IMG/VR virus record: IMGVR_UViG_3300037454_000319
From: a virus
Direction: 5' to 3' (one strand)
Length of the DNA: 64,000 nt
Each line of letters starts with the position of its first letter. Position 1 is the stretch's first letter. The position numbers were made by a program, and so were the translations under genes. Shown here one piece after another: positions 3,947 to 40,154 of the stretch. The notes under the pieces were generated by a model, which saw only the letters and a list, made by a program, of their open reading frames with translations, ran no database searches and was not told the origin of the DNA.

Positions 3947-4576
3947 TTATCCCCAAGTCCATTTATATCCATAAGCACTTTTTCTTTTACCTCTACAAAC
4001 TGAAGAAATATGAGAAGAAGCACCATTGGAAGTTGTAGTTATTTTTCCCAAAGCTATTGCTGCAGCCTTAGCCGATGGAAAAGATTGTATATATTCGCCA
4101 TCAAGAGAATACTGATTTACAATTTTACCATTAACTTTTTGACTAACTTGACTATGAGAAATTATATTTATTCCTTTTTCTTTAAGGATTAAATAAACAC
4201 TGTCAGCAGAAATATTCATAATTCTTGCAACTTCTTTACAATTCAATGTAGCTTTATATGTTGCTACCACTAAATCGTAATCAATATAAGGACGACCATC
4301 GCCGCCAGTTGTTGCATTATAACCATTTTTAAAAGAACCATAAAATTCAATCCAATACTTTTCTCTCTCTTCTGGAGAAGAAGTTTCTTCAATTAATTCT
4401 ACTGTAAAATTTTCAACTCCATATTTCTGCATAGCATCATATAAAGGTCTCTTTTCACATCGTTCTTTTAAACTATCTTGACAATGTTCTTTAAATCTTT
4501 CCTGAATGGTTTTATAGGTTTTCCCTATATAAATCTTACCATTGATAAGATTTGTAATTTTATAAACGTATGCCAA
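3947..4576 (-). CDS. GIY-YIG homing endonuclease with C-terminal HTH (NUMOD-like) DNA-binding region
   Basis: N-terminal YKITNLINGKIYIGKT (GIY...YIG), conserved R/E/N; C-terminal ...SSHISSVCRGKRKSAYGYKW motif; located in tRNA array like T4 segB. Confidence 0.8.
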   Translation of the reverse strand: MAYVYKITNLINGKIYIGKTYKTIQERFKEHCQDSLKERCEKRPLYDAMQKYGVENFTVELIEETSSPEEREKYWIEFYGSFKNGYNATTGGDGRPYIDYDLVVATYKATLNCKEVARIMNISADSVYLILKEKGINIISHSQVSQKVNGKIVNQYSLDGEYIQSFPSAKAAAIALGKITTTSNGASSHISSVCRGKRKSAYGYKWTWG

Positions 4577-13717: not shown

Positions 13718-14848
13718 TTAATCCTCCTTTGGCAGTTCTATCTTAAATAATGAAATGAACTTAGATGTGGTCATATCAGTAAATAAAGAATCTAAACGAC
13801 CGTCAAAAGCAGCGAAGTAAAGTGCCGCAGCCTTGTTCTTTCCGAAGTCCTGCGCGAACCACTTACGAGCAGTACGGTCGCCCTCTCCAAATGGGTGCTC
13901 CTTCTTCCATAATGATACAACTCTCTTTATTTCATATACTAATATATCTATTGCTTCAAGCTGTAATCTAACCTTAGTAAATGTATCCTCATACTCAGGA
14001 AAGTATGATAAAAACTCTGCGTCATCATTCTCACGAATTAAATCTACAATACGCTCTAAAGTAATTACTCCGTTGTTCTTTGCCTTGTGCATTTGGAAGT
14101 AAAGTAAAGTCTTAATCTTAACACGCTCATAGTTCTTGTCACATACAACAATACCTTCATGACCTTCAGGCATATTTGCGACAAGCTGACGATATTCTGC
14201 TTCATCTTCAAGGAGATATGTCTTAGGACAGCTAACTCCTAATTCTTTTGCAATTTGCCGAGCCGCAGGAGTTTCGTGAAGGTCTTCAGATAGCATATTA
14301 CGTGCAGAAAGAAGATATACCTTAGTCTCAGGATAGTCAATAACAACCTTGTTATAAGGAGATACAAGCTCGAAAGTTAAGCAATAAGGCTCATAACGGT
14401 TACCCACGAAGGCGGATAGAGGAAGTACAGACTCGAAGAGGTCTCCGAAAGTCTTATAAGGACCTACGCCGTTAAGCTCAGCCTTGAAAGCATCTATCTT
14501 GCCGTTTGTTGATATATGCCACTTGCCGCGAGCAAACCATACAGACATTATAGAGCCATCTATCTTCTCAGATGCAACGGCAGTATCCCAGTCTATATGA
14601 GCTGCATAGGACTCGTCTATATTGAAGAACTTCTTGAACGCATAGCGAACTACCTTGAAGTCATCACGAGCATCAAGGATAAGACCACGAGCCTCGCGGC
14701 AAATTTCCTCGTTAAAGTCAGAGTCTATCTGGCTATACTTGAAAAGAACGAAGCCGTCGTCCTCAGAAATTTTTAAGTTGTAAGGCGCATCAGCTAAAAG
14801 TTCACGCCAGTTATCATGTGCAAGGATAAACTCCTGTATTTTTAACAT
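13718..14848 (-). CDS. ATP-dependent RNA ligase, T4 Rnl1-like
   Basis: nucleotidyltransferase motif I EKIDGS (KxDG); ~375 aa like T4 Rnl1; genome rich in tRNA and other RNA-repair genes. Confidence 0.55.
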   Translation of the reverse strand: MLKIQEFILAHDNWRELLADAPYNLKISEDDGFVLFKYSQIDSDFNEEICREARGLILDARDDFKVVRYAFKKFFNIDESYAAHIDWDTAVASEKIDGSIMSVWFARGKWHISTNGKIDAFKAELNGVGPYKTFGDLFESVLPLSAFVGNRYEPYCLTFELVSPYNKVVIDYPETKVYLLSARNMLSEDLHETPAARQIAKELGVSCPKTYLLEDEAEYRQLVANMPEGHEGIVVCDKNYERVKIKTLLYFQMHKAKNNGVITLERIVDLIRENDDAEFLSYFPEYEDTFTKVRLQLEAIDILVYEIKRVVSLWKKEHPFGEGDRTARKWFAQDFGKNKAAALYFAAFDGRLDSLFTDMTTSKFISLFKIELPKED

Positions 14849-31616: not shown

Positions 31617-33065
31617 TCACTTCCAAGAGAACTCTGGACGGCTAAGTATTTCTACCATAGCCTGATAAGCGTTCTTCTCAATGAGTTCAAGCAAGAACTT
31701 GAAAGGACCTACACCAGCACCACTACAGTAACTGATGTTATCTGAAGTTGTAGCCATATAGTTATCCTGACGAGCATCAACATTCCAACTTACGACCTTA
31801 GTCTCTGGAAGACCAGCTTCACGGAGTCTTCTGTTCCACTTACCAACAATAGACTCGCCCTGATTACGGCCACAGTCATAGTCAAACTGACCATCTGAAA
31901 TTACAACAAGAGCCTTTGGTACTTCTCTTGTTCTAACTGCAACCTCATAAATCTTTGCGAAAGCCTTATCGAGGTCTGTATTGTAACCAACACCGACACT
32001 CTTAGCTCTATTTACGCAACGAGTGATGTCCCAGCTATCCTCAATCTTGACAAAGTAAGGGTCACGAGAATAAGTCATATACAAACCATGATATGCACCC
32101 TTATTACGCTGAGCGAAATAAGTTGCAAGACCAATAGATGTAGCCATAGGCTTACCAGTCATAGACTCAGAAACATCTGCCATAACAACAACGTCAAAGT
32201 CGCCCTTTACATAGTTAGGAAGTTTGTTCCACTGAGCCTTATCAAGAACACTATTTGTATCATTCTTATAAAGTATATTGTATACTATATCATATGGATA
32301 AAGAGTTGACGCTTTTACATCAGCTTCACCCTTATCAAGGGCCGCCATGTAAGCTGAATATCTTTCATTGTCATTCTTATTAAATGCCTTAGAATATCTA
32401 CGTGCAGCAATTGATGGAACAGTCTCGTAGTTAATATTACTCCAGTTCTTAGCACTCATATCTACCTCAACAACGTCAAGATACTTACGAAGCTTAGAAA
32501 GAGTCTTACGATATGTTCTTGGCTTAATACCAGCTACCTTACAAATACGACGTGCGCGAGCGCAAGTCTCCTTAGATGAAGTGTTAATAGAAGGCATCCA
32601 CTTAGCAAGAAGTGAAATAGGAGCTTTTGCGGCTACACCTTCGATATCCTTCATAAGCTGTGCAATAACAAAGTTAATTACATCATCGCCGATAGAAGTA
32701 TCAAGCAACTCAAAAAGGTCATCATATCTACCAACATTTACAAGAGTCTGGAAATTACGCTTTACCTTCTCAGGGTTAAGACGTACAAGCTCCTTCAAAA
32801 GGATACGACCGATACGTCTCTCACCAAGACCAGCATTACGAATATCACGAGCATAAAGAATGAGGTTGTCTGCCAACTCTTCATTCTCAAGACGAGCATC
32901 TCTCCAGTCCATTATTATATCCTGCTCATTACGATTTCTCATGCCACCTATCTTAGCATAAAAATCAAGAAGTGCGCCGCCATTTGTAGAACGATATGCT
33001 ACAGCACCATTCTCAGTATAAGTCTCATTAGCCATTGTCTTACATACATTTGCAAAATTACTCAT
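31617..33065 (-). CDS. DUF2828/TROVE-like N-terminal domain + C-terminal von Willebrand A (vWA) domain protein
   Basis: vWA MIDAS DVVVMADVSESMTG...ALVVISDGQ; N-term TENGAVAYRSTNGGALLDFYAKIGG. Confidence 0.55.
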   Translation of the reverse strand: MSNFANVCKTMANETYTENGAVAYRSTNGGALLDFYAKIGGMRNRNEQDIIMDWRDARLENEELADNLILYARDIRNAGLGERRIGRILLKELVRLNPEKVKRNFQTLVNVGRYDDLFELLDTSIGDDVINFVIAQLMKDIEGVAAKAPISLLAKWMPSINTSSKETCARARRICKVAGIKPRTYRKTLSKLRKYLDVVEVDMSAKNWSNINYETVPSIAARRYSKAFNKNDNERYSAYMAALDKGEADVKASTLYPYDIVYNILYKNDTNSVLDKAQWNKLPNYVKGDFDVVVMADVSESMTGKPMATSIGLATYFAQRNKGAYHGLYMTYSRDPYFVKIEDSWDITRCVNRAKSVGVGYNTDLDKAFAKIYEVAVRTREVPKALVVISDGQFDYDCGRNQGESIVGKWNRRLREAGLPETKVVSWNVDARQDNYMATTSDNISYCSGAGVGPFKFLLELIEKNAYQAMVEILSRPEFSWK

Positions 33066-33107
33066 TACACATTACTCCTTCAAGATAAATTATTTTTAGT
33101 TTGCTGT

Positions 33108-33153
33108 TTTATCTTACTTATATATTATACTATAAAATATTAAAAAAGTCAAA
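33108..33153 (-). promoter_or_regulatory. conserved promoter copy 19
   Basis: -10 33124-33129, -35 33147-33152. Confidence 0.65.
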
Positions 33154-33343
33154 TTTTTGGGGGGAAAATAAGGGCAACGTCGCAACGCCACCCTTACTCG
33201 GCTACTGCCGATAGTGCTTATCTCCCTGCACGGGCTCGCTATCCTTACGAATAGCTATCCTTTTAACGTCTTGATGGACGAGCGTGGATTTACCACATAC
33301 GCTACCACTTAATTTTTTATAGACGGAAATTAAGAAAACCAAC

Positions 33344-33436
33344 TGGCGCCTACTCTCGGACTCGAACCGAGACACCGCTTGCGCGACTACTACTGGTTTT
33401 CAAGACCAGTCCCTTACCAGTTAGGGTTAAGTAGGC
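33344..33436 (-). tRNA. tRNA-Ser (TGA), long variable arm
   Basis: 93 nt, loop CTTGAAA. Confidence 0.6.
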
Positions 33437-33457
33437 AAAAACAAGATACGTTTTTTC

Positions 33458-33488
33458 TCGTGCCTCTACCAATTGGGCTACTCCCCGA
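33458..33488 (-). pseudogene. tRNA 5'-half fragment (acceptor CGGGGAG + D-arm GCCCAATTGGTAGAGGC)
   Basis: D-arm identical to tRNA 34495..34571; no anticodon or T arm follows. Confidence 0.5.
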
Positions 33489-33491
33489 TAT

Positions 33492-33568
33492 GTTGCCCAT
33501 GACGGACTCGAACCATTATTCTCCCTACTTTCGTAGGGCGTAAACACCATGTATACTACATAGGCAAT
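33492..33568 (-). tRNA. atypical tRNA-like gene (acceptor GCCTATG/CATGGGC, TA at 8-9, GNRA hairpin CCCTAC-GAAA-GTAGGG, T-loop GGTTCGAGTCC)
   Basis: cloverleaf-like fold but anticodon loop CGAAAGT lacks U33. Confidence 0.3.
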
Positions 33569-33569
33569 C

Positions 33570-33615
33570 TGGTCGGGGAGGATGGGATTCGAACCCACAC
33601 TCTCGTGCTCCTAAA
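33570..33615 (-). pseudogene. tRNA 3'-half fragment (TAG loop, T-arm GTGGGTTCGAATCCCAT, acceptor CTCCCCG-A-CCA)
   Basis: 3' acceptor strand perfectly complementary (8 nt) to 5' fragment 33458-33488 located downstream: permuted order. Confidence 0.45.
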
Positions 33616-33644
33616 CGCAATAGATAGTTGCTGACGTATCTTTA

Positions 33645-33720
33645 TGGTGCCGAGGGGGAGACTCGAACTCCCAACGCGAGGCTCTTCAGGCCTCCGCTCT
33701 ACCGTTGGAGCTACCTCGGC
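33645..33720 (-). tRNA. tRNA-Phe (GAA) copy 2
   Basis: loop CTGAAGA. Confidence 0.55.
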
Positions 33721-33744
33721 ATTATCAAGACAGTTATACTTATA

Positions 33745-33805
33745 ACTCTACCATTGAGCTACGCGGCACTCTCGTACCACGGTGGGATTCGAACCCACAT
33801 CCTCC
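33745..33805 (-). pseudogene. tRNA fragments: 3'-like (GTGGGTTCGAATCCCAC) followed by 5'-like (GCCGCGTAGCTCAATGGTAGAG)
   Basis: partial arms only, no complete cloverleaf. Confidence 0.35.
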
Positions 33806-33859
33806 TTCAGACAAAAAGAAAAAGTTAAATGTTTTAAATGTTTTGCTGAACTGTCTTAT

Positions 33860-33936
33860 TGGTCGGAGCGGCGGGATTCGAACCCGCAAGAAACTGTTTT
33901 TGAGACAGCCGTGTCTGCCAATTGCACCACGCTCCG
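33860..33936 (-). tRNA. class-I (short variable arm) tRNA with anticodon CAA (Leu codon UUG)
   Basis: acceptor CGGAGCG/CGCTCCG perfect, A73, loop CTCAAAA, 5-nt variable loop. Confidence 0.5.
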
Positions 33937-33939
33937 ATT

Positions 33940-34015
33940 TGGGTGGAAAGATGAGACTCGAACTCACACCTTCATGGGCCACAACCATGCGCTCTACCGT
34001 TAAGCTACTCACCAC
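33940..34015 (-). tRNA. tRNA-His (GTG)
   Basis: loop TTGTGGC, C73. Confidence 0.5.
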
Positions 34016-34170
34016 ATCAATAAGACATACTATTGCGAACTTGCCGTATGTCAGGGCGGCTCATTTAATTTCTCCTCGTTAGGGATGTGCCGCGATGCCA
34101 TAACCGCGGAGTTGTCATATTGATTCTCCCAAACCAATAGGACGTAATAAAAATGCAATTGCCTTTCGGC

Positions 34171-34244
34171 TGGTCGGCACAGGAAGATTCGAACTTCCGC
34201 TCCTTTCTTGTAAGGAAAGGTGACTCCCTTTATCGTATGCGCCG
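34171..34244 (-). tRNA. tRNA-Val (TAC)?
   Basis: loop CTTACAA; atypical D-arm. Confidence 0.4.
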
Positions 34245-34271
34245 ATTAACAAGACTCTTTATACCTTTACG

Positions 34272-34345
34272 GTCCGGAAGAGGGATTCGAACCCTCATAT
34301 GTACGATTTTAGGTCGTATGACTTAGCCACTTTGTCTATTCTGGA
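34272..34345 (-). tRNA. class-I tRNA with anticodon TAA (Leu codon UUA), C33
   Basis: stem TACGA/TCGTA, loop CCTAAAA. Confidence 0.4.
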
Positions 34346-34494
34346 AAGAAATGTTGCTGAAGAGTCTTTAATTTGGTTCGGGTATGCTTATCGGAGTCAA
34401 GTACTCGCAGTTCCTCTTTCGAGGTATTTTCTTCGGAGTAAAGACCTTAAGGTTCGCGTAACCTCTTGTGCCCTAACCCATATCCGAAACCCGA

Positions 34495-34571
34495 TGGTGC
34501 CGATAGAGGGATTCGAACCCACACTGTCCAGTTCCTAAGACTGGTGCCTCTACCAATTGGGCTATGTCGGC
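34495..34571 (-). tRNA. class-I tRNA with anticodon TAG; D-arm and anticodon arm resemble bacterial tRNA-Leu(TAG) but long variable arm absent
   Basis: GCCCAATTGGTAGAGGC + CCAGTCTTAGGAACTGG, A73, 77 nt. Confidence 0.5.
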
Positions 34572-34594
34572 ATTAATGTCGGACAAACCGACAT

Positions 34595-34846
34595 TTATTT
34601 TGCTAATACTACTATTAGTGGAATGTGTCCTGTTTTATCATATGCCATAGCTAAAGGATATTTTTCAATTAGTTCTTTGTTATTTACTACTATCTGAGTC
34701 ATCACCATAGCAATACTTTCTTTTAATCCATCTTCATTGCAGAAGTAAGGACCGCCAGAATCTCCGCCATGGTCTACAGCATCTATAATAGTGCTATTAT
34801 AGGCTTTTATAAAATTAAGAAGGTCATAACTATCTTTAAAAACCAT
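34595..34846 (-). CDS. hypothetical protein
   Basis: ORF. Confidence 0.45.
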   Translation of the reverse strand: MVFKDSYDLLNFIKAYNSTIIDAVDHGGDSGGPYFCNEDGLKESIAMVMTQIVVNNKELIEKYPLAMAYDKTGHIPLIVVLAK

Positions 34847-34857
34847 AATATTCTCCT

Positions 34858-35412
34858 TTACTTAGAAAGCATATTTGCGATACCAGAAGCCGCATAGCTG
34901 TCTGGCTTAATACGAGACTCAAAACCCATGCTATCAATATAGCCACAGATTTCTGTAATCATCTCATGTGTCTTGCCGCGCTTACCAATGTCAGCGTGAA
35001 TAGCAAAACCAAGCTGTTCCTTATTGTGCATCTCGTCAAGGTCAATATCATAATCAATTAACTCATATGCAAGAGCATCATAGAAACCTGTTGCATTTTG
35101 AATAGAACGGAATGTCTCTTCATAAATTTTTGTCTTTAAAACAGATATTCTTGGAATATCCTCTACCTTGTAAAAGAAAATGCCGCCATCACCAACACGG
35201 CAGACAGCAATTACTTCTACCATTCTTGTATACTTGTGGTTCTGAGAGTCAGTTCCTATTGTAATATCATATTCGGCATCAGGCTTATCTGCAATAAATT
35301 TTGCAATAATCTTAATAACCTCATCAAACTTTACCTTAGTCTTTGCTCTGTTGCCACGAGTAAATATCTTGTCGGCAATCACGTCAATCTCTCCTTTTCT
35401 AACTATATTCAA
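34858..35412 (-). CDS. hypothetical protein, possible RNase H-like fold (motif ITIGTDSQ)
   Basis: ORF; weak motif only. Confidence 0.4.
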   Translation of the reverse strand: MNIVRKGEIDVIADKIFTRGNRAKTKVKFDEVIKIIAKFIADKPDAEYDITIGTDSQNHKYTRMVEVIAVCRVGDGGIFFYKVEDIPRISVLKTKIYEETFRSIQNATGFYDALAYELIDYDIDLDEMHNKEQLGFAIHADIGKRGKTHEMITEICGYIDSMGFESRIKPDSYAASGIANMLSK

Positions 35413-35546
35413 GACGATTTTATAAATTGGGCTCTTCTTAATGGAAAAAAAAGAAATTCAATTTGAAAAGTTTGCAGAAATCGTCTTAGTGGTGATAATA
35501 CGTGCCGCGGCACCACAGACCGCTATATGTGGTCGCACGTATTCTC

Positions 35547-35632
35547 TGGTCGGCTCGGTGGGACTCGAACCCACATGCCCTTACGGGCACCAGAACCTTA
35601 ATCTGGCGCGTATACCAATTCCGCCACGAGCC
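35547..35632 (-). tRNA. tRNA-Leu (AAG), class II with Leu-type variable arm; A34 unusual for bacteria
   Basis: 86 nt, loop TTAAGGT, variable arm GCCCGTAAGGGCA. Confidence 0.5.
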
Positions 35633-35711
35633 GTTGGTTGCTGATAAAGTCCAGCTTACTACATATCTGTCTTTAATAAACGAGGACAACATTTGTTCTT
35701 ACACTCGTAAG

Positions 35712-35787
35712 TGGTCGGAGATGCGGGACTCGAACCCACAGCCTCTGCGTCCCAAGCGCAGCCGTCTACCAAATTGGCGTAATCCCC
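35712..35787 (-). tRNA. tRNA-Pro (TGG)
   Basis: loop CTTGGGA. Confidence 0.6.
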
Positions 35788-35796
35788 GATTTTAAA

Positions 35797-35872
35797 TGGT
35801 GGACCTGAAGGGAGTCGAACCCTCGACCTCCTGCTTGCAGGGCAGGCGCTCTCCCAATTGAGCTACAGGCCC
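35797..35872 (-). tRNA. tRNA-Ala (TGC) with G3-U70
   Basis: acceptor GGGCCTG/CAGGTCC, loop CCTGCAA. Confidence 0.55.
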
Positions 35873-36490
35873 ATTAATTCTTGACAACTTTATAAAAAGA
35901 ACATTGTCGGTTTTTATTCGCCGTACTCATACAACGCTGCACATTATTCAGTCACAGTGGCGATAAGTCTGAGCCCCAGAGCCGTCGCTCTGAAACTTCT
36001 TACCGCGAGTCCGAAGACTCCAAGCACTGAGGGGAATCTTTCTACCCCCAACTTTCACCCATCATTCAGAATTTGATAATTATAATACTTTCTATCATCA
36101 AAACCAAATCTGAGCCTTGGGCTACTCGTACCACCATCGGGTTTCCTTTCCATTTCTGAAAAGGTTATAGGCTCAACCCCATTGCTTTGCATTCCCTGTA
36201 TTTGCTCACATCTTGCGGACGTGGTCTGCAGGGTTCTTCCCATCTGGGCGTCTATTGTTGGGGCAACCAGTTTAGGTGTACCATTGCTTCACGTTGCACC
36301 TGTGCCACTACTTCTTCATTGGTGGCTGGTATACCACCTGCCCATATCCCCTTTCGGTTCAATGGCCGCTCCCGTTTTGAGGTATCCCTCTGACGAAAAC
36401 GAGACAGTTCCATAGTGCCCATGCAGAGTTGATTAGACCCTCATTTTAACACATGGTTACAACATACTTTTTATGAAGTTGTCAAGATAA
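35873..36490 (-). ncRNA. ~620-nt GC-rich (~48%) noncoding island between tRNA-Ala and a tRNA fragment; possible TTGACA-N17-TTGTAA promoter near 36440-36470
   Basis: no ORF >62 aa in any frame; many GC hairpins; adjacent HNH endonuclease. Confidence 0.3.
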
Positions 36491-36491
36491 G

Positions 36492-36560
36492 TGGTCGGCG
36501 AGATGGGATTCGAACCCACACTGAATGGATTTTCGTACTACTCTATATCGCTATAGCCGC
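36492..36560 (-). pseudogene. tRNA 3'-fragment / pseudo-tRNA (GTGTGGGTTCGAATCCCATCTCGCCGACCA)
   Basis: good T-arm and CCA but 5' half not tRNA-like. Confidence 0.4.
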
Positions 36561-36608
36561 ATAATGCGTTGTAGTCTGGACTTAGTCTTTACCATATTCA
36601 TATAGAAC

Positions 36609-37124
36609 TTAGGTAGCTGGTGTAAAGTCTCTACACATAGATTTTAGACGTACATTTCTACCACGATAAGTTTCTGTAAGAGCATGACAATTTGGGCATA
36701 AATAACGAAGATTAGATAATTCATTATTAGTATTATCTCCATCAATATGGTCAATTTCTAATGAAATTATCCCACCTTGCCAAGAACCATCACAACCACA
36801 ATTAATACATTTATAATCAAGAAGTTTATATCTTTCAACATATCCTCTTAATCCTTTTTGGCTAATTGGGCTGTTTTTAATGAAGACTTCTTCTAATGTA
36901 TATTTCTCTTTACGTTTAAGTGAAGCATTATCATCTTTTGTAAGACCTTTACTCCAACCTTGACCTTTAAAATGAGAAACATCAATTCCAAATTCTTCAA
37001 TTTTGTTCTTTAGAGTTTTTTGTGCTCCACCGCCTTGTGCACGTCCCGATTTTCTCAGAACTTCTGCATAAGAAAAGCTTTCTGCACAAACTTTCTCTAA
37101 CCACTCTTTAGTATATTTCTGCAT
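36609..37124 (-). CDS. HNH homing endonuclease
   Basis: C-terminal EIDHIDGDNTNNELSNLRYLCPNCHALTE HNH motif; sits in tRNA region. Confidence 0.75.
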   Translation of the reverse strand: MQKYTKEWLEKVCAESFSYAEVLRKSGRAQGGGAQKTLKNKIEEFGIDVSHFKGQGWSKGLTKDDNASLKRKEKYTLEEVFIKNSPISQKGLRGYVERYKLLDYKCINCGCDGSWQGGIISLEIDHIDGDNTNNELSNLRYLCPNCHALTETYRGRNVRLKSMCRDFTPAT

Positions 37125-37420
37125 TTTATCACCTCAATTATAAGGTAGGAAGACGCAGAAATTACTCAAAACTTTTCGTCTGCCTAAAATCCTTGCACGG
37201 CGTTCTGTGTTCGCCTTCGCCGTTTTAGCCAGCTTCTACTCTCAGAGTTTTCCTCTGAGGCACTCTCTACTATTGAAGTAGCATTACATAGTAACAGAAC
37301 ACATCAAAGTCCATTGCCTCTGCCTGTTGCGCTACTCGCCGTTTGGTTGCCATAAGGTTCGCAAGCCACACATCAACTTTTTATTAAAGTGAGAGTTTCA
37401 TTTGTTCTAAAACTCACTAT

Positions 37421-37494
37421 TGGTTGCGGCCCAAGGATTCGAACCAAGAACTTCTGGTAATGAGCCAGATATTATGCCTTTTCACTAAACCGCA
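37421..37494 (-). tRNA. tRNA (CAT) copy 3, weak T-stem
   Basis: loop CTCATTA, acceptor TGCGGTT/GGCCGCA. Confidence 0.4.
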
Positions 37495-37510
37495 ATATAT
37501 TCTCTTTAAC

Positions 37511-37552
37511 TTTTCTAAAATTATTATATCATAATTTCTAAAAAAAGTCAAA
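37511..37552 (-). promoter_or_regulatory. conserved promoter copy 20
   Basis: -10 37523-37528, -35 37546-37551. Confidence 0.7.
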
Positions 37553-38290
37553 TTTTCTTTTGTCTAAGTCATTTCGTAAGCACTCTCACCACGTGAAGGT
37601 AGACTTAATTGAGAGTATTTTTTGTTAATGTCTGGTGCCGCCACATCATCCTGCACACAGGAGACAGGGTACTCGAACCCCTCAACAACCTTAACAAGGG
37701 AATTTCAACCCATCTTGACAATTATAAAGCCGCCAAGCGAAACGGCTTTGGCATTTTATCCTCTTAATCGAGAGGCGCTTACCATCGCGCGGTCATACCT
37801 TCTGTATGAGCCTTTGTAATGTCGTCAGGTTCCCACACTATCGCAGTAAACTCGCCGCTTAACCATCAAGTTTAAGGATTATAATATATTCAAACTTGAA
37901 AAATATATACTTCATTCTTCCTTTTTACATCGTCAGCAGTAGATGTGTAGCATATTATCGAAATGCCATCACGCCGCTTATCCAACAGCGGTAGTAGAAC
38001 CGTATCGTAGGCAAACGCCGCTTAACCAACCGCGGTAGTAGGAAAAGAGAAACAGTTTATACTGCCATCACACAGTCGGGTAGGTCTGTGATGGGTACTA
38101 CCCAATTAGGGCTTTTAGAGTTTGGTACGGTCTCAAAAGATAAACCCATAGAACTCATACCGTGGCAATTTAGTGTCATCGTCTCGCACGACGAGAGTTT
38201 TAACGTCTTTACTTTGACAGCGCCGCAACCAGCAACGTTGCACTTGTTTTGCATTTCATTTTGCAGGTCTGTGAAAACAAGAAACCTTTG
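37553..38290 (-). ncRNA. ~740-nt noncoding region upstream of tRNA-Gly with tandem hairpin repeats (acgccgcttaaccaaccgcggtagtag x2-3 at 37850-38045)
   Basis: no credible ORF; direct repeats 37971-38002 and 38014-38045 each form CCGC...GCGG hairpins. Confidence 0.3.
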
Positions 38291-38294
38291 ACCT

Positions 38295-38369
38295 TGGAGC
38301 GGAATACGAGACTCGAACTCGCAACACCTGCTTGGAAGGCAAGGATGTTCCCAATTACACCAATTCCGC
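38295..38369 (-). tRNA. tRNA-Gly (TCC)
   Basis: loop CTTCCAA. Confidence 0.6.
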
Positions 38370-38449
38370 ATTAACAAGACACTTATAAATAGCTACTTTT
38401 GATTAACCGTCAAATGCTTTTTTCTATAAGAAATTTGCTGAATGTGTCT

Positions 38450-38490
38450 TTCAATATAAATATTATATCATAATTTATTTTAAAAGTCAA
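38450..38490 (-). promoter_or_regulatory. conserved promoter copy 21 (spacer 16)
   Basis: -10 38462-38467, -35 38484-38489. Confidence 0.6.
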
Positions 38491-38504
38491 ATTTTCGACT
38501 TCTA

Positions 38505-38790
38505 AATTTCTTTAAAACCCTTGCTTGTACATCGAATCCTCGTATTATATCCACAGTCACATCGTGATTTACTCCCACACAAGAGGGCTACCATGGAGAA
38601 GGGGCACGCCCCGAGGTGGGCGGCAATTACAGAGAGCGCTATATTGGCTGATATAACGCCCAAAGGAACTCTGTCTACACGTGGTAGATGAGCTATCGCA
38701 TTTCTGCGACCCCGCACAGCGGGTAGCGGTGTCGGATACTCCGCCTTAAGAGATGAACTACATATCATCGTAGAGGTTATAATAACCTCT
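38505..38790 (-). ncRNA. ~285-nt GC-rich noncoding region downstream of promoter 21 and upstream of tRNA-Ser (candidate structured RNA / leader)
   Basis: ORF 38502..38768 has implausible composition; hairpins ggggcacgcccc, cccgcacagcggg. Confidence 0.3.
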
Positions 38791-38884
38791 TGGCGCGGAG
38801 AGAGGGACTCGAACCCTCGCGGCGGTTATTAGCCGCCCTACTCCCTTAGCAGGGGAGCCTCGTCACCAACTTGAGTACCTCCGC
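38791..38884 (-). tRNA. tRNA-Ser (GCT), long variable arm
   Basis: 94 nt, loop CTGCTAA. Confidence 0.6.
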
Positions 38885-38985
38885 ATTAATATCCGCTGAG
38901 CATCTTATTGGAACGCTTTCACCTTGCGAGACCTCTATTGTTTATTTGCTGGCAGAATTTGAACCATTAACCATAGCGAATATCT

Positions 38986-39058
38986 GGTGGGACTGGGAAG
39001 ATTCGAACTTCCGTACGACCGTTATGAGCGGTCAGTCCTGCCATTAGACGACAGTCCC
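38986..39058 (-). tRNA. tRNA-Met/Ile2 (CAT) copy 4
   Basis: loop CTCATAA. Confidence 0.55.
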
Positions 39059-39113
39059 ATAAAGAAAGGAAAGGGGCATACTTTACAAATGGCTATGCCA
39101 GACCAGAATCAGT

Positions 39114-39187
39114 TGGCTTCTGCGAAGGGAGTCGAACCCCTATTCTAAGAGCCAAAATCTTATGTCCTACCATTAGACGACGCAGAA
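39114..39187 (-). tRNA. tRNA-Gln (TTG)
   Basis: acceptor TTCTGCG/CGCAGAA, loop TTTTGGC. Confidence 0.5.
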
Positions 39188-39203
39188 ATAAATTTGTGAC
39201 TGA

Positions 39204-39253
39204 TTTTCTCAATCACTATAAATATTATATCATAAAATTATAAAAAAGTCAAA
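39204..39253 (-). promoter_or_regulatory. conserved promoter copy 22
   Basis: -10 39224-39229, -35 39247-39252. Confidence 0.7.
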
Positions 39254-39713
39254 TTTTTGAGAACTCTTTTATATCATAATCGTGGCTATTAAACCACTTA
39301 TGTATCATTATTCTTTCTGAACATAGTTGCTCAGGCTTCTCATAAACTATCAGTGCCGCCACGGGGTCGCCTTCAAATCCCAAGAACTCTTTTGCTCGTT
39401 TACCAAATGACTCAAATCGAGAGATAATATCTTCATAATCTAAGTATTTTAGCTGTACATAATAATCATGTAAAAACGGACAAACTTGAGGATTCGACTT
39501 ACAACCCTTGCCGCCACATTCTGCGATGTTCTGAAAGTCTGGTACGAAAGGCTCAGCGCGGCAACCAATTAAAACTCCATTCTTATCAACATAAGTTGAC
39601 TTCATATCTCCATTGATATGATACCACGCTGGGTCAAATGCCGCCGTGCTAAGTGGAATTATATTAGGAGTAAAAAATCTTATTTGATAGAAGTATGAAG
39701 TTATAATTTCCAT
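39249..39713 (-). CDS. hypothetical Cys-rich protein (start MEIITSYFY)
   Basis: ORF trimmed. Confidence 0.45.
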   Translation of the reverse strand: MEIITSYFYQIRFFTPNIIPLSTAAFDPAWYHINGDMKSTYVDKNGVLIGCRAEPFVPDFQNIAECGGKGCKSNPQVCPFLHDYYVQLKYLDYEDIISRFESFGKRAKEFLGFEGDPVAALIVYEKPEQLCSERIMIHKWFNSHDYDIKEFSKI

Positions 39714-39838
39714 TACTCGCCCTTGCCTTCTCCTGCGATTATCTTCTCCCAGCAGTCTGGGCAAAGAGTAGCTTCCTCGTCAACTGACTCAAATGTCTTT
39801 CCACATTCGCTACAAATTATCTCATAAGTATCACTCAT
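39713..39838 (-). CDS. small zinc-ribbon protein (MSDTYEIICSECGK...)
   Basis: RBS AAGGAGGA. Confidence 0.4.
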   Translation of the reverse strand: MSDTYEIICSECGKTFESVDEEATLCPDCWEKIIAGEGKGE

Positions 39839-40154
39839 TTGTTTCGTCCTCCTTAGACTTCTCAGTATATACCCATGCCTGCTTACCGTCAGCAAGAATA
39901 TATATAGCATTAAGTTTAAATGTTTCAGGCTTCTGATTTACTATTTCAACAGTATGCTTTACGCCTGCGAGTCTGTCTTCTTCAAGACTTACTCTAAATT
40001 CCTTTCCACTCATGTTCTGGACGATGGATTTTGTACTTGAAAGTGACAACTTGCCATCTACTCCTACAATTTTTTCGACCACATTTATATGGAAACGAAT
40101 TTTTGCTTTAACAATATCCCAAGGCTGAAATCCTCTTGTTCCTTTTGGTTCCAT
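39831..40154 (-). CDS. hypothetical protein (start MEPKGTRGF, RBS AGGAGGAG)
   Basis: ORF trimmed. Confidence 0.45.
   Translation of the reverse strand: MEPKGTRGFQPWDIVKAKIRFHINVVEKIVGVDGKLSLSSTKSIVQNMSGKEFRVSLEEDRLAGVKHTVEIVNQKPETFKLNAIYILADGKQAWVYTEKSKEDETNE

Follow-up and report, generated by a model that had tools for sequence, protein, structure and literature searches.

The viral DNA stretch IMGVR_UViG_3300037454_000319 from IMG/VR, analysed here over its whole length of 64,000 nucleotides (nt) and referred to as the window, is phage DNA. It contains 38 transfer RNA (tRNA) genes called by ARAGORN, organized into two arrays and all located on the minus strand, which also carries nearly all open reading frames (ORFs) of at least 150 amino acids. 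The phage genes recognizable by Pfam and PHROGs searches include those for homing endonucleases, an Rnl1-type RNA ligase, and an RNA-binding protein of PHROG 850. Between two of the tRNA genes there is an island, 35873..36491, which is very likely a full-length gene for ROOL RNA on the minus strand, adjoined by a tRNA(UAA) gene that is split by an intron with an HNH endonuclease gene. The positions of the main elements are listed in Table 1, and the relatives fetched for comparison carry numbers with the prefix L.

Positions 33000..40000 were scanned with all Rfam covariance models at expectation values (E) of up to 1, and the scan was repeated for the whole window. The ROOL model (RF03087) matches the minus strand of the island at 35889..36480 with a score of 263.2 bits, in comparison with a gathering score of 99.1, and E of 5.8e-60; the whole-window scan reproduces the same match. 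The alignment spans model positions 1-574 of 574, including the pseudoknots and conserved motifs. The outermost helix reaches past the ends of the Rfam match, and is formed by a 29-nt inverted repeat (35879-35907 with 36459-36487) that is 86% complementary. The RNA has a length of 592 nt according to Rfam and 609 nt with the terminal helix, close to the family mean of 581 nt. The dense hairpins claimed for the island in the original prediction, which was made from the sequence alone, are borne out by the fold of the 609-nt RNA. It has a minimum free energy of -210.4 kcal/mol, compared with -169 ± 6 kcal/mol for shuffled sequences (z = -6.65), none of the 20 shuffles folds as well, and the terminal helix is recovered in the predicted structure. 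The segment aligned to the unstructured linker of the model (positions of about 345-410) has a guanine and cytosine (GC) content of 36%, compared with 45.6% for the whole RNA. An exact 40-mer of this ROOL has no match in IMG/VR, and no close DNA relatives of the island and its flanks were found among GenBank phages using megablast and blastn. The identification as ROOL from sequence and predicted fold is secure, and nothing contradicts it. The instance is ordinary, as a phage tRNA island is the textbook setting of the family.

The island is 619 nt long and contains neither a tRNA nor a convincing ORF, in agreement with the predicted non-coding stretch of approximately 620 nt from tRNA-Ala to a tRNA 3′ half at 36492. 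Its GC content of 45.1% exceeds the 37.9% of the window; the enrichment is real but milder than first claimed, when the values were put at about 48% and 35%. Approximately 7% of 619-nt segments of the window are as GC-rich as the island or more so, and nearly all of them are located within the tRNA arrays, of which such a composition is typical and not unique to the island. The claim that no ORF is longer than 62 amino acids holds for ATG starts, but not for TTG starts, which initiate ORFs of 77 and 68 amino acids on the plus strand.

Other identities that had been proposed for the island fare poorly. An RNase P RNA, transfer-messenger RNA (tmRNA), or other housekeeping-like RNA would be large, GC-rich, structured, and placed among tRNAs, as the island is. 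However, the RNase P and tmRNA models find nothing in the island at E of up to 1, and ROOL accounts for its entire length, which leaves this identity scarcely credible. The only tmRNA match in the region is a 17-nt T-arm-like segment at 33782-33798. If the island were the decayed remains of a group I or group II intron with which the HNH gene arrived, the position of this gene and a tRNA half beside it would be explained, and a real group I intron does lie nearby. Nevertheless, the boundaries of that intron, 37306 and 36534, fall within a tRNA that terminates with its CCA at 36492, so that the island lies beyond both the intron and the tRNA, and neither of the group I and group II intron models matches the island at E of up to 1, where ROOL aligns at full length. 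Delivery of the HNH gene by an intron was thus correctly proposed for the neighbouring segment 37306..36534 and incorrectly for the island, whose origin from an intron has a negligible probability. We give almost no weight to the third identity, a pseudogenised protein-coding gene. The short ORFs of 56-77 amino acids on both strands might be its remains, but they have no matches in Pfam and a single non-significant one in PHROGs (E of 0.11, for a 56-amino-acid ORF), so that these searches identified no protein remnant. In contrast, the RNA model matches the island end to end with E of about 1e-59, and the GC content of the island is higher than that of coding regions.

The TTGACA-N17 promoter that had been suggested in this region was rejected as a by-product of the ROOL terminal helix. 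The hexamer TTGACA is located at 36485..36480 on the minus strand, in the 5′ arm of the helix, and has a mirror image at 35881-35886 on the plus strand, in the opposite arm. The corresponding -10 element is poor (TTGTAA), and the site is absent from the calls of our promoter scan.

The terminal helix of ROOL begins 4 nt past the encoded CCA of the upstream split tRNA and ends 6 nt ahead of the first base of tRNA-Ala. Because the two tRNAs are so close, ordinary tRNA processing could free ROOL almost without flanking sequences. The 3′ maturation of the upstream tRNA would release the 5′ end of ROOL, and the cutting of the 5′ end of tRNA-Ala by RNase P would define its 3′ end. The promoter scan found four near-identical TTGACT-N17-TATAAT sites on the minus strand (39252-39224, 38490-38462, 37551-37523, and 33152-33124), each with 11 out of 12 consensus matches and three with an upstream TG. 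These sites are spread along the tRNA island and would split it into several transcription units. The site at 37551-37523 is positioned just upstream of tRNA-Met, and the scan detected no comparable site between it and ROOL. Judging from this arrangement, a transcript starting there probably includes ROOL, and its order would be tRNA-Met, the split tRNA, ROOL, tRNA-Ala, tRNA-Pro, and tRNA-Leu.

The related phage contig L018 speaks against tight flanking by tRNAs as a general property of ROOL. It encodes a ROOL (290 bits) within a tRNA array, but the nearest tRNAs are 355-473 nt away. L018 is also the only one of the fetched relatives that has both ROOL and an intron-bearing tRNA, and the two are separated by about 2 kilobases. 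Therefore, the adjacency of ROOL and the split tRNA in the window is probably incidental.

The tRNA piece at 36492, originally taken for a pseudo-tRNA or 3′ fragment, represents the 3′ exon of a tRNA gene with an intron. Its acceptor strand CTCGCCG has a complement approximately 850 nt upstream, recognizable by eye. When introns are allowed, ARAGORN joins 37341..37307 to 36533..36492, and the spliced product of this gene, which spans 36492..37341, is called as a 77-nt tRNA-Leu(taa). The rule that U precedes the 5′ splice site (position -1) and G is the last intron nucleotide (omega), together with the homologues, places the junction at CUU/AAAA, between anticodon positions 34 and 35 (U34/A35). 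The splice placement given by ARAGORN (CU/.../GAAAA, producing a Phe-GAA anticodon) was rejected because the intron would end in C. The anticodon stem, which is built from both exons, covaries across the homologues (helix 1, 97% paired). A D arm of the Leu type is present in the tRNA, whereas a long variable arm is absent; by its sequence, the tRNA is a derivative of tRNA-Leu that has lost this arm.

Bacterial tRNA-Leu normally has a long variable arm. The window encodes four tRNAs with Leu anticodons that have lengths of 75-77 nt and no such arm (CAA, UAA, UAG, and the split UAA), and the same short forms are present in the related phage contigs L006, L009, L010, and L033. The tRNA-Leu(AAG) at 35547-35633 is the only tRNA with a Leu anticodon in the window that has the long variable arm.

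The 773-nt insert in the split tRNA is, judging from its sequence, a group I intron that belongs to the tRNA-Leu(UAA) lineage and would excise itself by self-splicing to produce the 77-nt tRNA. Its structure was evaluated in an alignment of 14 distinct constructs without the ORF, using the anticodon stem and helices P1, P2, P3, P4, P8, P9, P9a, P9b, and the P7 pseudoknot. Helices with partners slid by 1-3 columns, and 500 shuffles, were used as controls. Standard base pairs occupy 94.2% of the cells in the 14 homologues, compared with 27.8-41.3% in the slid controls, and in 30 of the 49 pairs both partners change. The slid controls reach a covariation score of at most 0.095, compared with 0.513 for the proposed structure, a value that none of the 500 shuffles attains. 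Both-side changes affect four pairs in P3, three each in P7 and P8, and seven in P2. The P3/P7 pseudoknot is the defining element of group I introns, and covariation is present in both of its helices. At the splice site, 13 of the 14 sequences have a U-G pair and L027 has C-G. All family members have G as the last nucleotide before the 3′ exon, which starts with AAAA except in L023 (AUAU). The pairing ACUAC/GUAGU was considered as P7 and rejected, since the true J6/7-P7-P3′ element lies within the 3′ end of the ORF and remains conserved in the relatives with an antisense ORF.

Several observations weigh against the insert being a functional intron in a functional tRNA. The Rfam group I model (Intron_gpI, RF00028) finds no match in 36480-37420 at E of up to 10, and also misses L033, the closest ORF-less phage relative. 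L009, scanned at relaxed E-values, likewise has no group I match. P5 of this subtype is reduced: P4 closes a loop of 14-15 nt (AAGGCGAACACAGAA), and there is no obvious P5. The tRNA has a G-G mismatch in its 3-base-pair D stem in addition to the missing variable arm, so that its splicing competence and aminoacylation identity are predictions. Homologue L023, aligned across the core, scores 63.3 bits with Intron_gpI when scanned alone (gathering score 50, E of 5.6e-16), and the assignment of P3, P4-P6, P7, and J8/7 by Rfam agrees with the proposed structure. The group I membership of the window's intron is therefore by homology and not by direct match. P5 is present in family members L023, L027, and L006, and the P1 loop of the window's intron contains extra hairpins. 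The reduced P5 and these hairpins are the probable reason why Rfam misses the subtype.

The absent model match for the intron and L033, the reduced P5, and the defects of the tRNA could also be explained if the HNH gene were a free-standing endonuclease that destroyed a tRNA gene and left behind a dead tRNA without a functional ribozyme. We consider this quite unlikely. Approximately 260 nt of the intron outside the ORF are conserved, and compensatory changes occur in P2, P3, P7, P8, and P9b among phages and bacteria. Relatives in which the ORF is absent, truncated, or antisense retain the same core, and the same subtype is present in the chromosomal tRNA-Leu(UAA) gene of Ruminococcus albus 8. 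Moreover, the exons rejoin to a recognizable tRNA with U at -1 and G at omega. A group I intron in a split tRNA gene agrees better with these features. Neither the split tRNA nor this subtype of intron is picked up by standard annotation.

The HNH ORF had been correctly located, and its identity is confirmed by matches to PF01844 (22.5 bits, cutoff 21.4) and phrog_10822 (1.5e-52). The HNH motif with flanking cysteine pairs is intact (EIDHIDGDNTNN...CPNCH), there is no internal stop codon, and the ribosome-binding site GAGGUG is positioned at 37135-37130. The ORF is located in the terminal loop of P6, where P6a and P6b bracket it together with its ribosome-binding site. In relatives without the ORF, P4′ and J6/7 are separated by a simple P6 hairpin, in the place where the window holds the ORF. 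The last approximately 14 codons overlap P6′, J6/7, the 5′ strand of P7, and the 3′ strand of P3, and the stop codon is in J3/8. The same intron occurs among the relatives with an intact, truncated, antisense, or absent ORF. Such a patchy distribution is the pattern that a mobile endonuclease gene would give, and provides indirect support for mobility. The endonuclease would cut intron-less alleles in co-infecting relatives, and thereby spread the intron.

Each of the HNH relatives in IMG/VR (L001-L004, 67-68% identity) is located within a tRNA-Leu(UAA) gene, at the insertion site seen in the window, and in L009 the same intron has lost most of the ORF. The HNH ORF of L003 and L004 (start 3001) has an in-frame TAG about 300 nt in, at a position occupied by CAG in L001 and L002, and tRNA(CUA) genes are present in the related contigs L002, L013, L026, and L033. 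This points to the reading of TAG as a sense codon, probably for Gln, in these phages.

A pattern of the conserved core retrieves 16 viral loci. ORF-less introns of approximately 204-268 nt are found in L018, L023, L027, and L033, and the intron of L032 is also ORF-less. In L006 (the same contig as L024), L019, L025, and L030, an endonuclease ORF antisense to the tRNA and intron is inserted between P6 and J6/7, and the core is conserved. The intron of L027 (10192-10497) has an apparent C before the 5′ splice site (CUC/...G/AAAA, anticodon CAA), and resembles the C(-1) class reported by Williams 2020. In L023 (2766-3046), an intron of the same family occupies an apparent tRNA-Ile(UAU) and not tRNA-Leu. 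Further group I introns recognized by Rfam are present in the related phage contigs L006 (2259-2461, minus strand) and L026 (11677-11986); one scores 59.5 bits and is located in the anticodon loop of a tRNA-Tyr, and the other scores 73 bits. From these sequences, introns seem common in this phage group. The conclusion stands, on sequence evidence, that HNH-bearing introns of the tRNA-Leu(UAA) lineage circulate among the tRNA genes of uncultivated gut or rumen phages.

A looser core pattern matched many cyanobacteria and many gut and rumen Clostridia among bacterial genomes. All of the bacterial examples that were checked are in split tRNAs, and several of these are called as tRNA-Leu(UAA) with the intron at the same site (L037, L070, L075, L077, L098, and L096). 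The Nodularia locus L034 has the classical layout with the splice junction CUU/AAAA by eye; ARAGORN labels it as Ser, and its splice placement there is poor. When the ORF is left out, the pre-tRNA of the window has 79.6% identity to that of R. albus 8 tRNA-Leu(UAA) and 65.2% identity to that of Nodularia. The main difference from R. albus 8 is the deletion of the long variable arm of the tRNA in the window. The similarity suggests a Ruminococcus-like host. An identity of about 80% to a chromosomal Ruminococcus intron suggests that phage and host exchange cassettes consisting of a tRNA and its intron, and provides a clue to the host.

Table 1. Elements of the window discussed in the text, with positions, strands, and the basis of each assignment
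Element	Position	Strand	Basis
ROOL RNA gene	35879..36487 (Rfam part 35889..36480)	minus	RF03087 match, terminal closing helix, fold
AU-rich variable linker of ROOL	36040..36125	minus	Rfam alignment, GC dip
tRNA-Ala(UGC)	35797..35872	minus	ARAGORN; Rfam tRNA 67.9 bits
Promoter-like site TTGACT-N17-TATAAT with upstream TG	37523..37551	minus	11/12 consensus matches
Split tRNA(UAA), exon 1 (tRNA positions 1-34)	37307..37341	minus	ARAGORN, splice rule
Split tRNA(UAA), exon 2 (tRNA positions 35-77 including encoded CCA)	36492..36533	minus	ARAGORN, spliced-product call
Group I intron, predicted, 773 nt	36534..37306	minus	ARAGORN, splice rule, covariation, homology
P1	37309-37307 with 37265-37263	minus	
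P2	37259-37241	minus	
P3	37234-37229 with 36620-36615	minus	
P4	37222-37218 with 37202-37198	minus	
P6a (GGAUU/AAUCU)	37192-37188 with 36643-36639	minus	By eye and folding; outside covariation test
P6b (AGACG/CGUCU)	37181-37177 with 36650-36646	minus	By eye and folding; outside covariation test
J6/7	36636-36630	minus	
P7	36629-36625 with 36583-36579	minus	
P8	36608-36596	minus	
J8/7	36595-36586	minus	
P9 (ACUAC/GUAGU)	36575-36571 with 36541-36537	minus	
P9a	36568-36558	minus	
P9b, GNRA loop	36556-36543	minus	
Omega-G	36534	minus	
HNH homing-endonuclease ORF, 171 amino acids	36609..37124	minus	PF01844, phrog_10822
Short Leu-anticodon tRNAs	33860-33936, 34271-34345, 34495-34571, 36492-37341	minus	ARAGORN
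Candidate phage Y RNA, 139 nt	33721-33859	minus	Fold z = -4.40
Ro-like DUF2828/VWA protein	31617-33065		phrog_850 'RNA-binding protein', 1.3e-109
RNaseH-like protein, within tRNA island	34858-35412	minus	PF04308
Rnl1-type RNA ligase	13718-14848	minus	PF09511, phrog_562
GIY-YIG and NUMOD1 homing-endonuclease ORF, inside first tRNA array	3947-4576	minus	Pfam, PHROGs

The tRNA island also contains a candidate Y RNA. In its predicted fold, a closing stem of 10 base pairs encloses a hairpin that resembles a T arm (GUGGGUUCGAAUCCCAC), a second hairpin, and one that resembles a D arm. The Rfam YrlA model matches it at 33744-33803 with 31.5 bits, below the gathering score of 69. The gene for the Ro-like protein is approximately 650 nt away; a pattern method retrieved no relatives of this protein from IMG/VR. 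The genes of the Rnl1-type ligase and the RNaseH-like and Ro-like proteins make up a group for RNA handling in the surroundings of the tRNAs and ROOL.

At 33492-33566 on the minus strand, ARAGORN reports a tRNA to which it assigns no type and whose anticodon loop has 6 nt ('anticodon aa'). The Rfam tRNA model finds no match there at E of up to 1, and the tRNA may be decayed or unusual. Two other GC-rich stretches of the minus strand have no annotation. The gap of 743 nt between tRNA-Gly and the promoter-like site at 37551 (37552-38294) has no Rfam match, and folds weakly better than shuffled sequences (z = -1.43). It contains three copies of GGNTAAGCGGCG (37853-37864, 37972-37983, and 38016-38027), compared with 0.19 expected, and at least two of them appear by eye within similar short CCGC/GCGG hairpins. 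The 300 nt between tRNA-Ser and a promoter-like site (38491-38790) are the most GC-rich stretch of the tRNA island (up to 53-54%). They also lack an Rfam match, and their fold is marginal (z = -2.05, with 5 of 200 shuffles as good).

By analogy with the ROOL RNAs of solved structure, the 29-base-pair terminal helix would close the window's ROOL, and the RNA would assemble into a protein-free homo-octameric hollow cage. The most likely role of such a cage, on the same analogy, is that of a phage-encoded RNA container or scaffold during infection, possibly acting on tRNAs or ribosomal components. ROOL might have an active part in a phage system that supplies tRNAs and repairs RNA, in which it would share a transcript with tRNAs, including a self-splicing one, be released by tRNA-processing enzymes, and form a cage that binds, protects, or delivers phage tRNAs or repair factors as a defence against anticodon nucleases of the host. 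Candidates for such factors that are encoded nearby are the Ro-like protein with the candidate Y RNA, the Rnl1-type RNA ligase, and the RNaseH-like protein. We regard this elaborate arrangement as unlikely. Together with its likely ends and the candidate promoter, the RNA-handling neighbours of ROOL, namely these candidates and the 38 tRNAs, provide a compact setting in which an action of the cage on phage tRNAs could be tested.

Known phage group I introns with homing endonucleases include the td intron of T4, where I-TevI is encoded in P6, as well as introns of SPO1 and Twort-like phages that carry HNH genes. The window's intron is similar to them in that the ORF is looped out of a peripheral helix and its 3′ end overlaps the ribozyme core, but their hosts are protein-coding genes and not tRNA genes. 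The junction of the classical cyanobacterial tRNA-Leu intron is CUU/a...g/AAAA (Williams 2020). The window's intron shares with the classical tRNA-Leu(UAA) intron the insertion site, the junction CUU/AAAA, and the core sequences J6/7-P7-P3′ and J8/7-P7′, and differs from it by the P5 loop, the hairpins in the P1 loop, the HNH ORF in P6, and the phage tRNA without a variable arm. The introns of R. albus 8 (NZ_ADKM02000023.1) and related gut and rumen Clostridia belong to the same subtype with the reduced P5. However, the R. albus 8 intron is chromosomal, has no ORF (238 nt), and interrupts a normal long-arm tRNA-Leu. According to a 2014 review, all phage introns then known were in protein-coding genes, despite the many tRNA genes of phages (Hausner et al., PMC3984707). 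A 2026 survey of complete bacterial genomes found that endonuclease genes in tRNA introns are rare, the HNH types occurring in tRNA-Asn of Patescibacteria and tRNA-Leu(UAA) of Bacteroidota (PMC13011429). In the literature that we searched, no group I introns are reported from tRNA genes of phages, which is no proof of novelty. The lineage of the intron is known, and its location in a phage tRNA gene is less expected.

In a 2017 study, ROOL was presented as a large and ornate RNA with a mean length of 581 nt, often located near tRNAs and in prophages, and its co-transcription with tRNAs was suggested as possible (PMC5737381). ROOL env-120 from cow rumen was characterized by cryo-electron microscopy as a protein-free homo-octameric cage, approximately 280 Å across, with a disordered and non-conserved linker inside (PMC12286853). 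The octamer with D4 symmetry is established only for this RNA. According to the same study, ROOL genes occur in phages and prophages and frequently lie close to tRNA islands; the function of ROOL is unknown, and the authors proposed a possible encapsulation of phage tRNAs or ribosomal components (PMC12286853). The ROOL described here resembles ROOL env-120 and that of Ligilactobacillus salivarius in its closing helix, pseudoknots, internal variable linker, and length of approximately 600 nt. It is also phage-encoded and located in a tRNA island on the strand of the tRNAs (38 out of 38 here). It differs from the ROOL of L018 by the immediate proximity of the flanking tRNAs. This makes the copy useful, because its likely ends are fixed within a few nucleotides by tRNAs, and a candidate promoter is at hand. 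GOLLD RNA is also a large ornate phage and prophage RNA of unknown function that is encoded near tRNAs and forms an RNA-only cage, but its sequence and fold are unrelated and its cage is a 14-mer; the whole-window Rfam scan identified no GOLLD match. ROOL is among the very few natural RNAs for which a protein-free cage is known.

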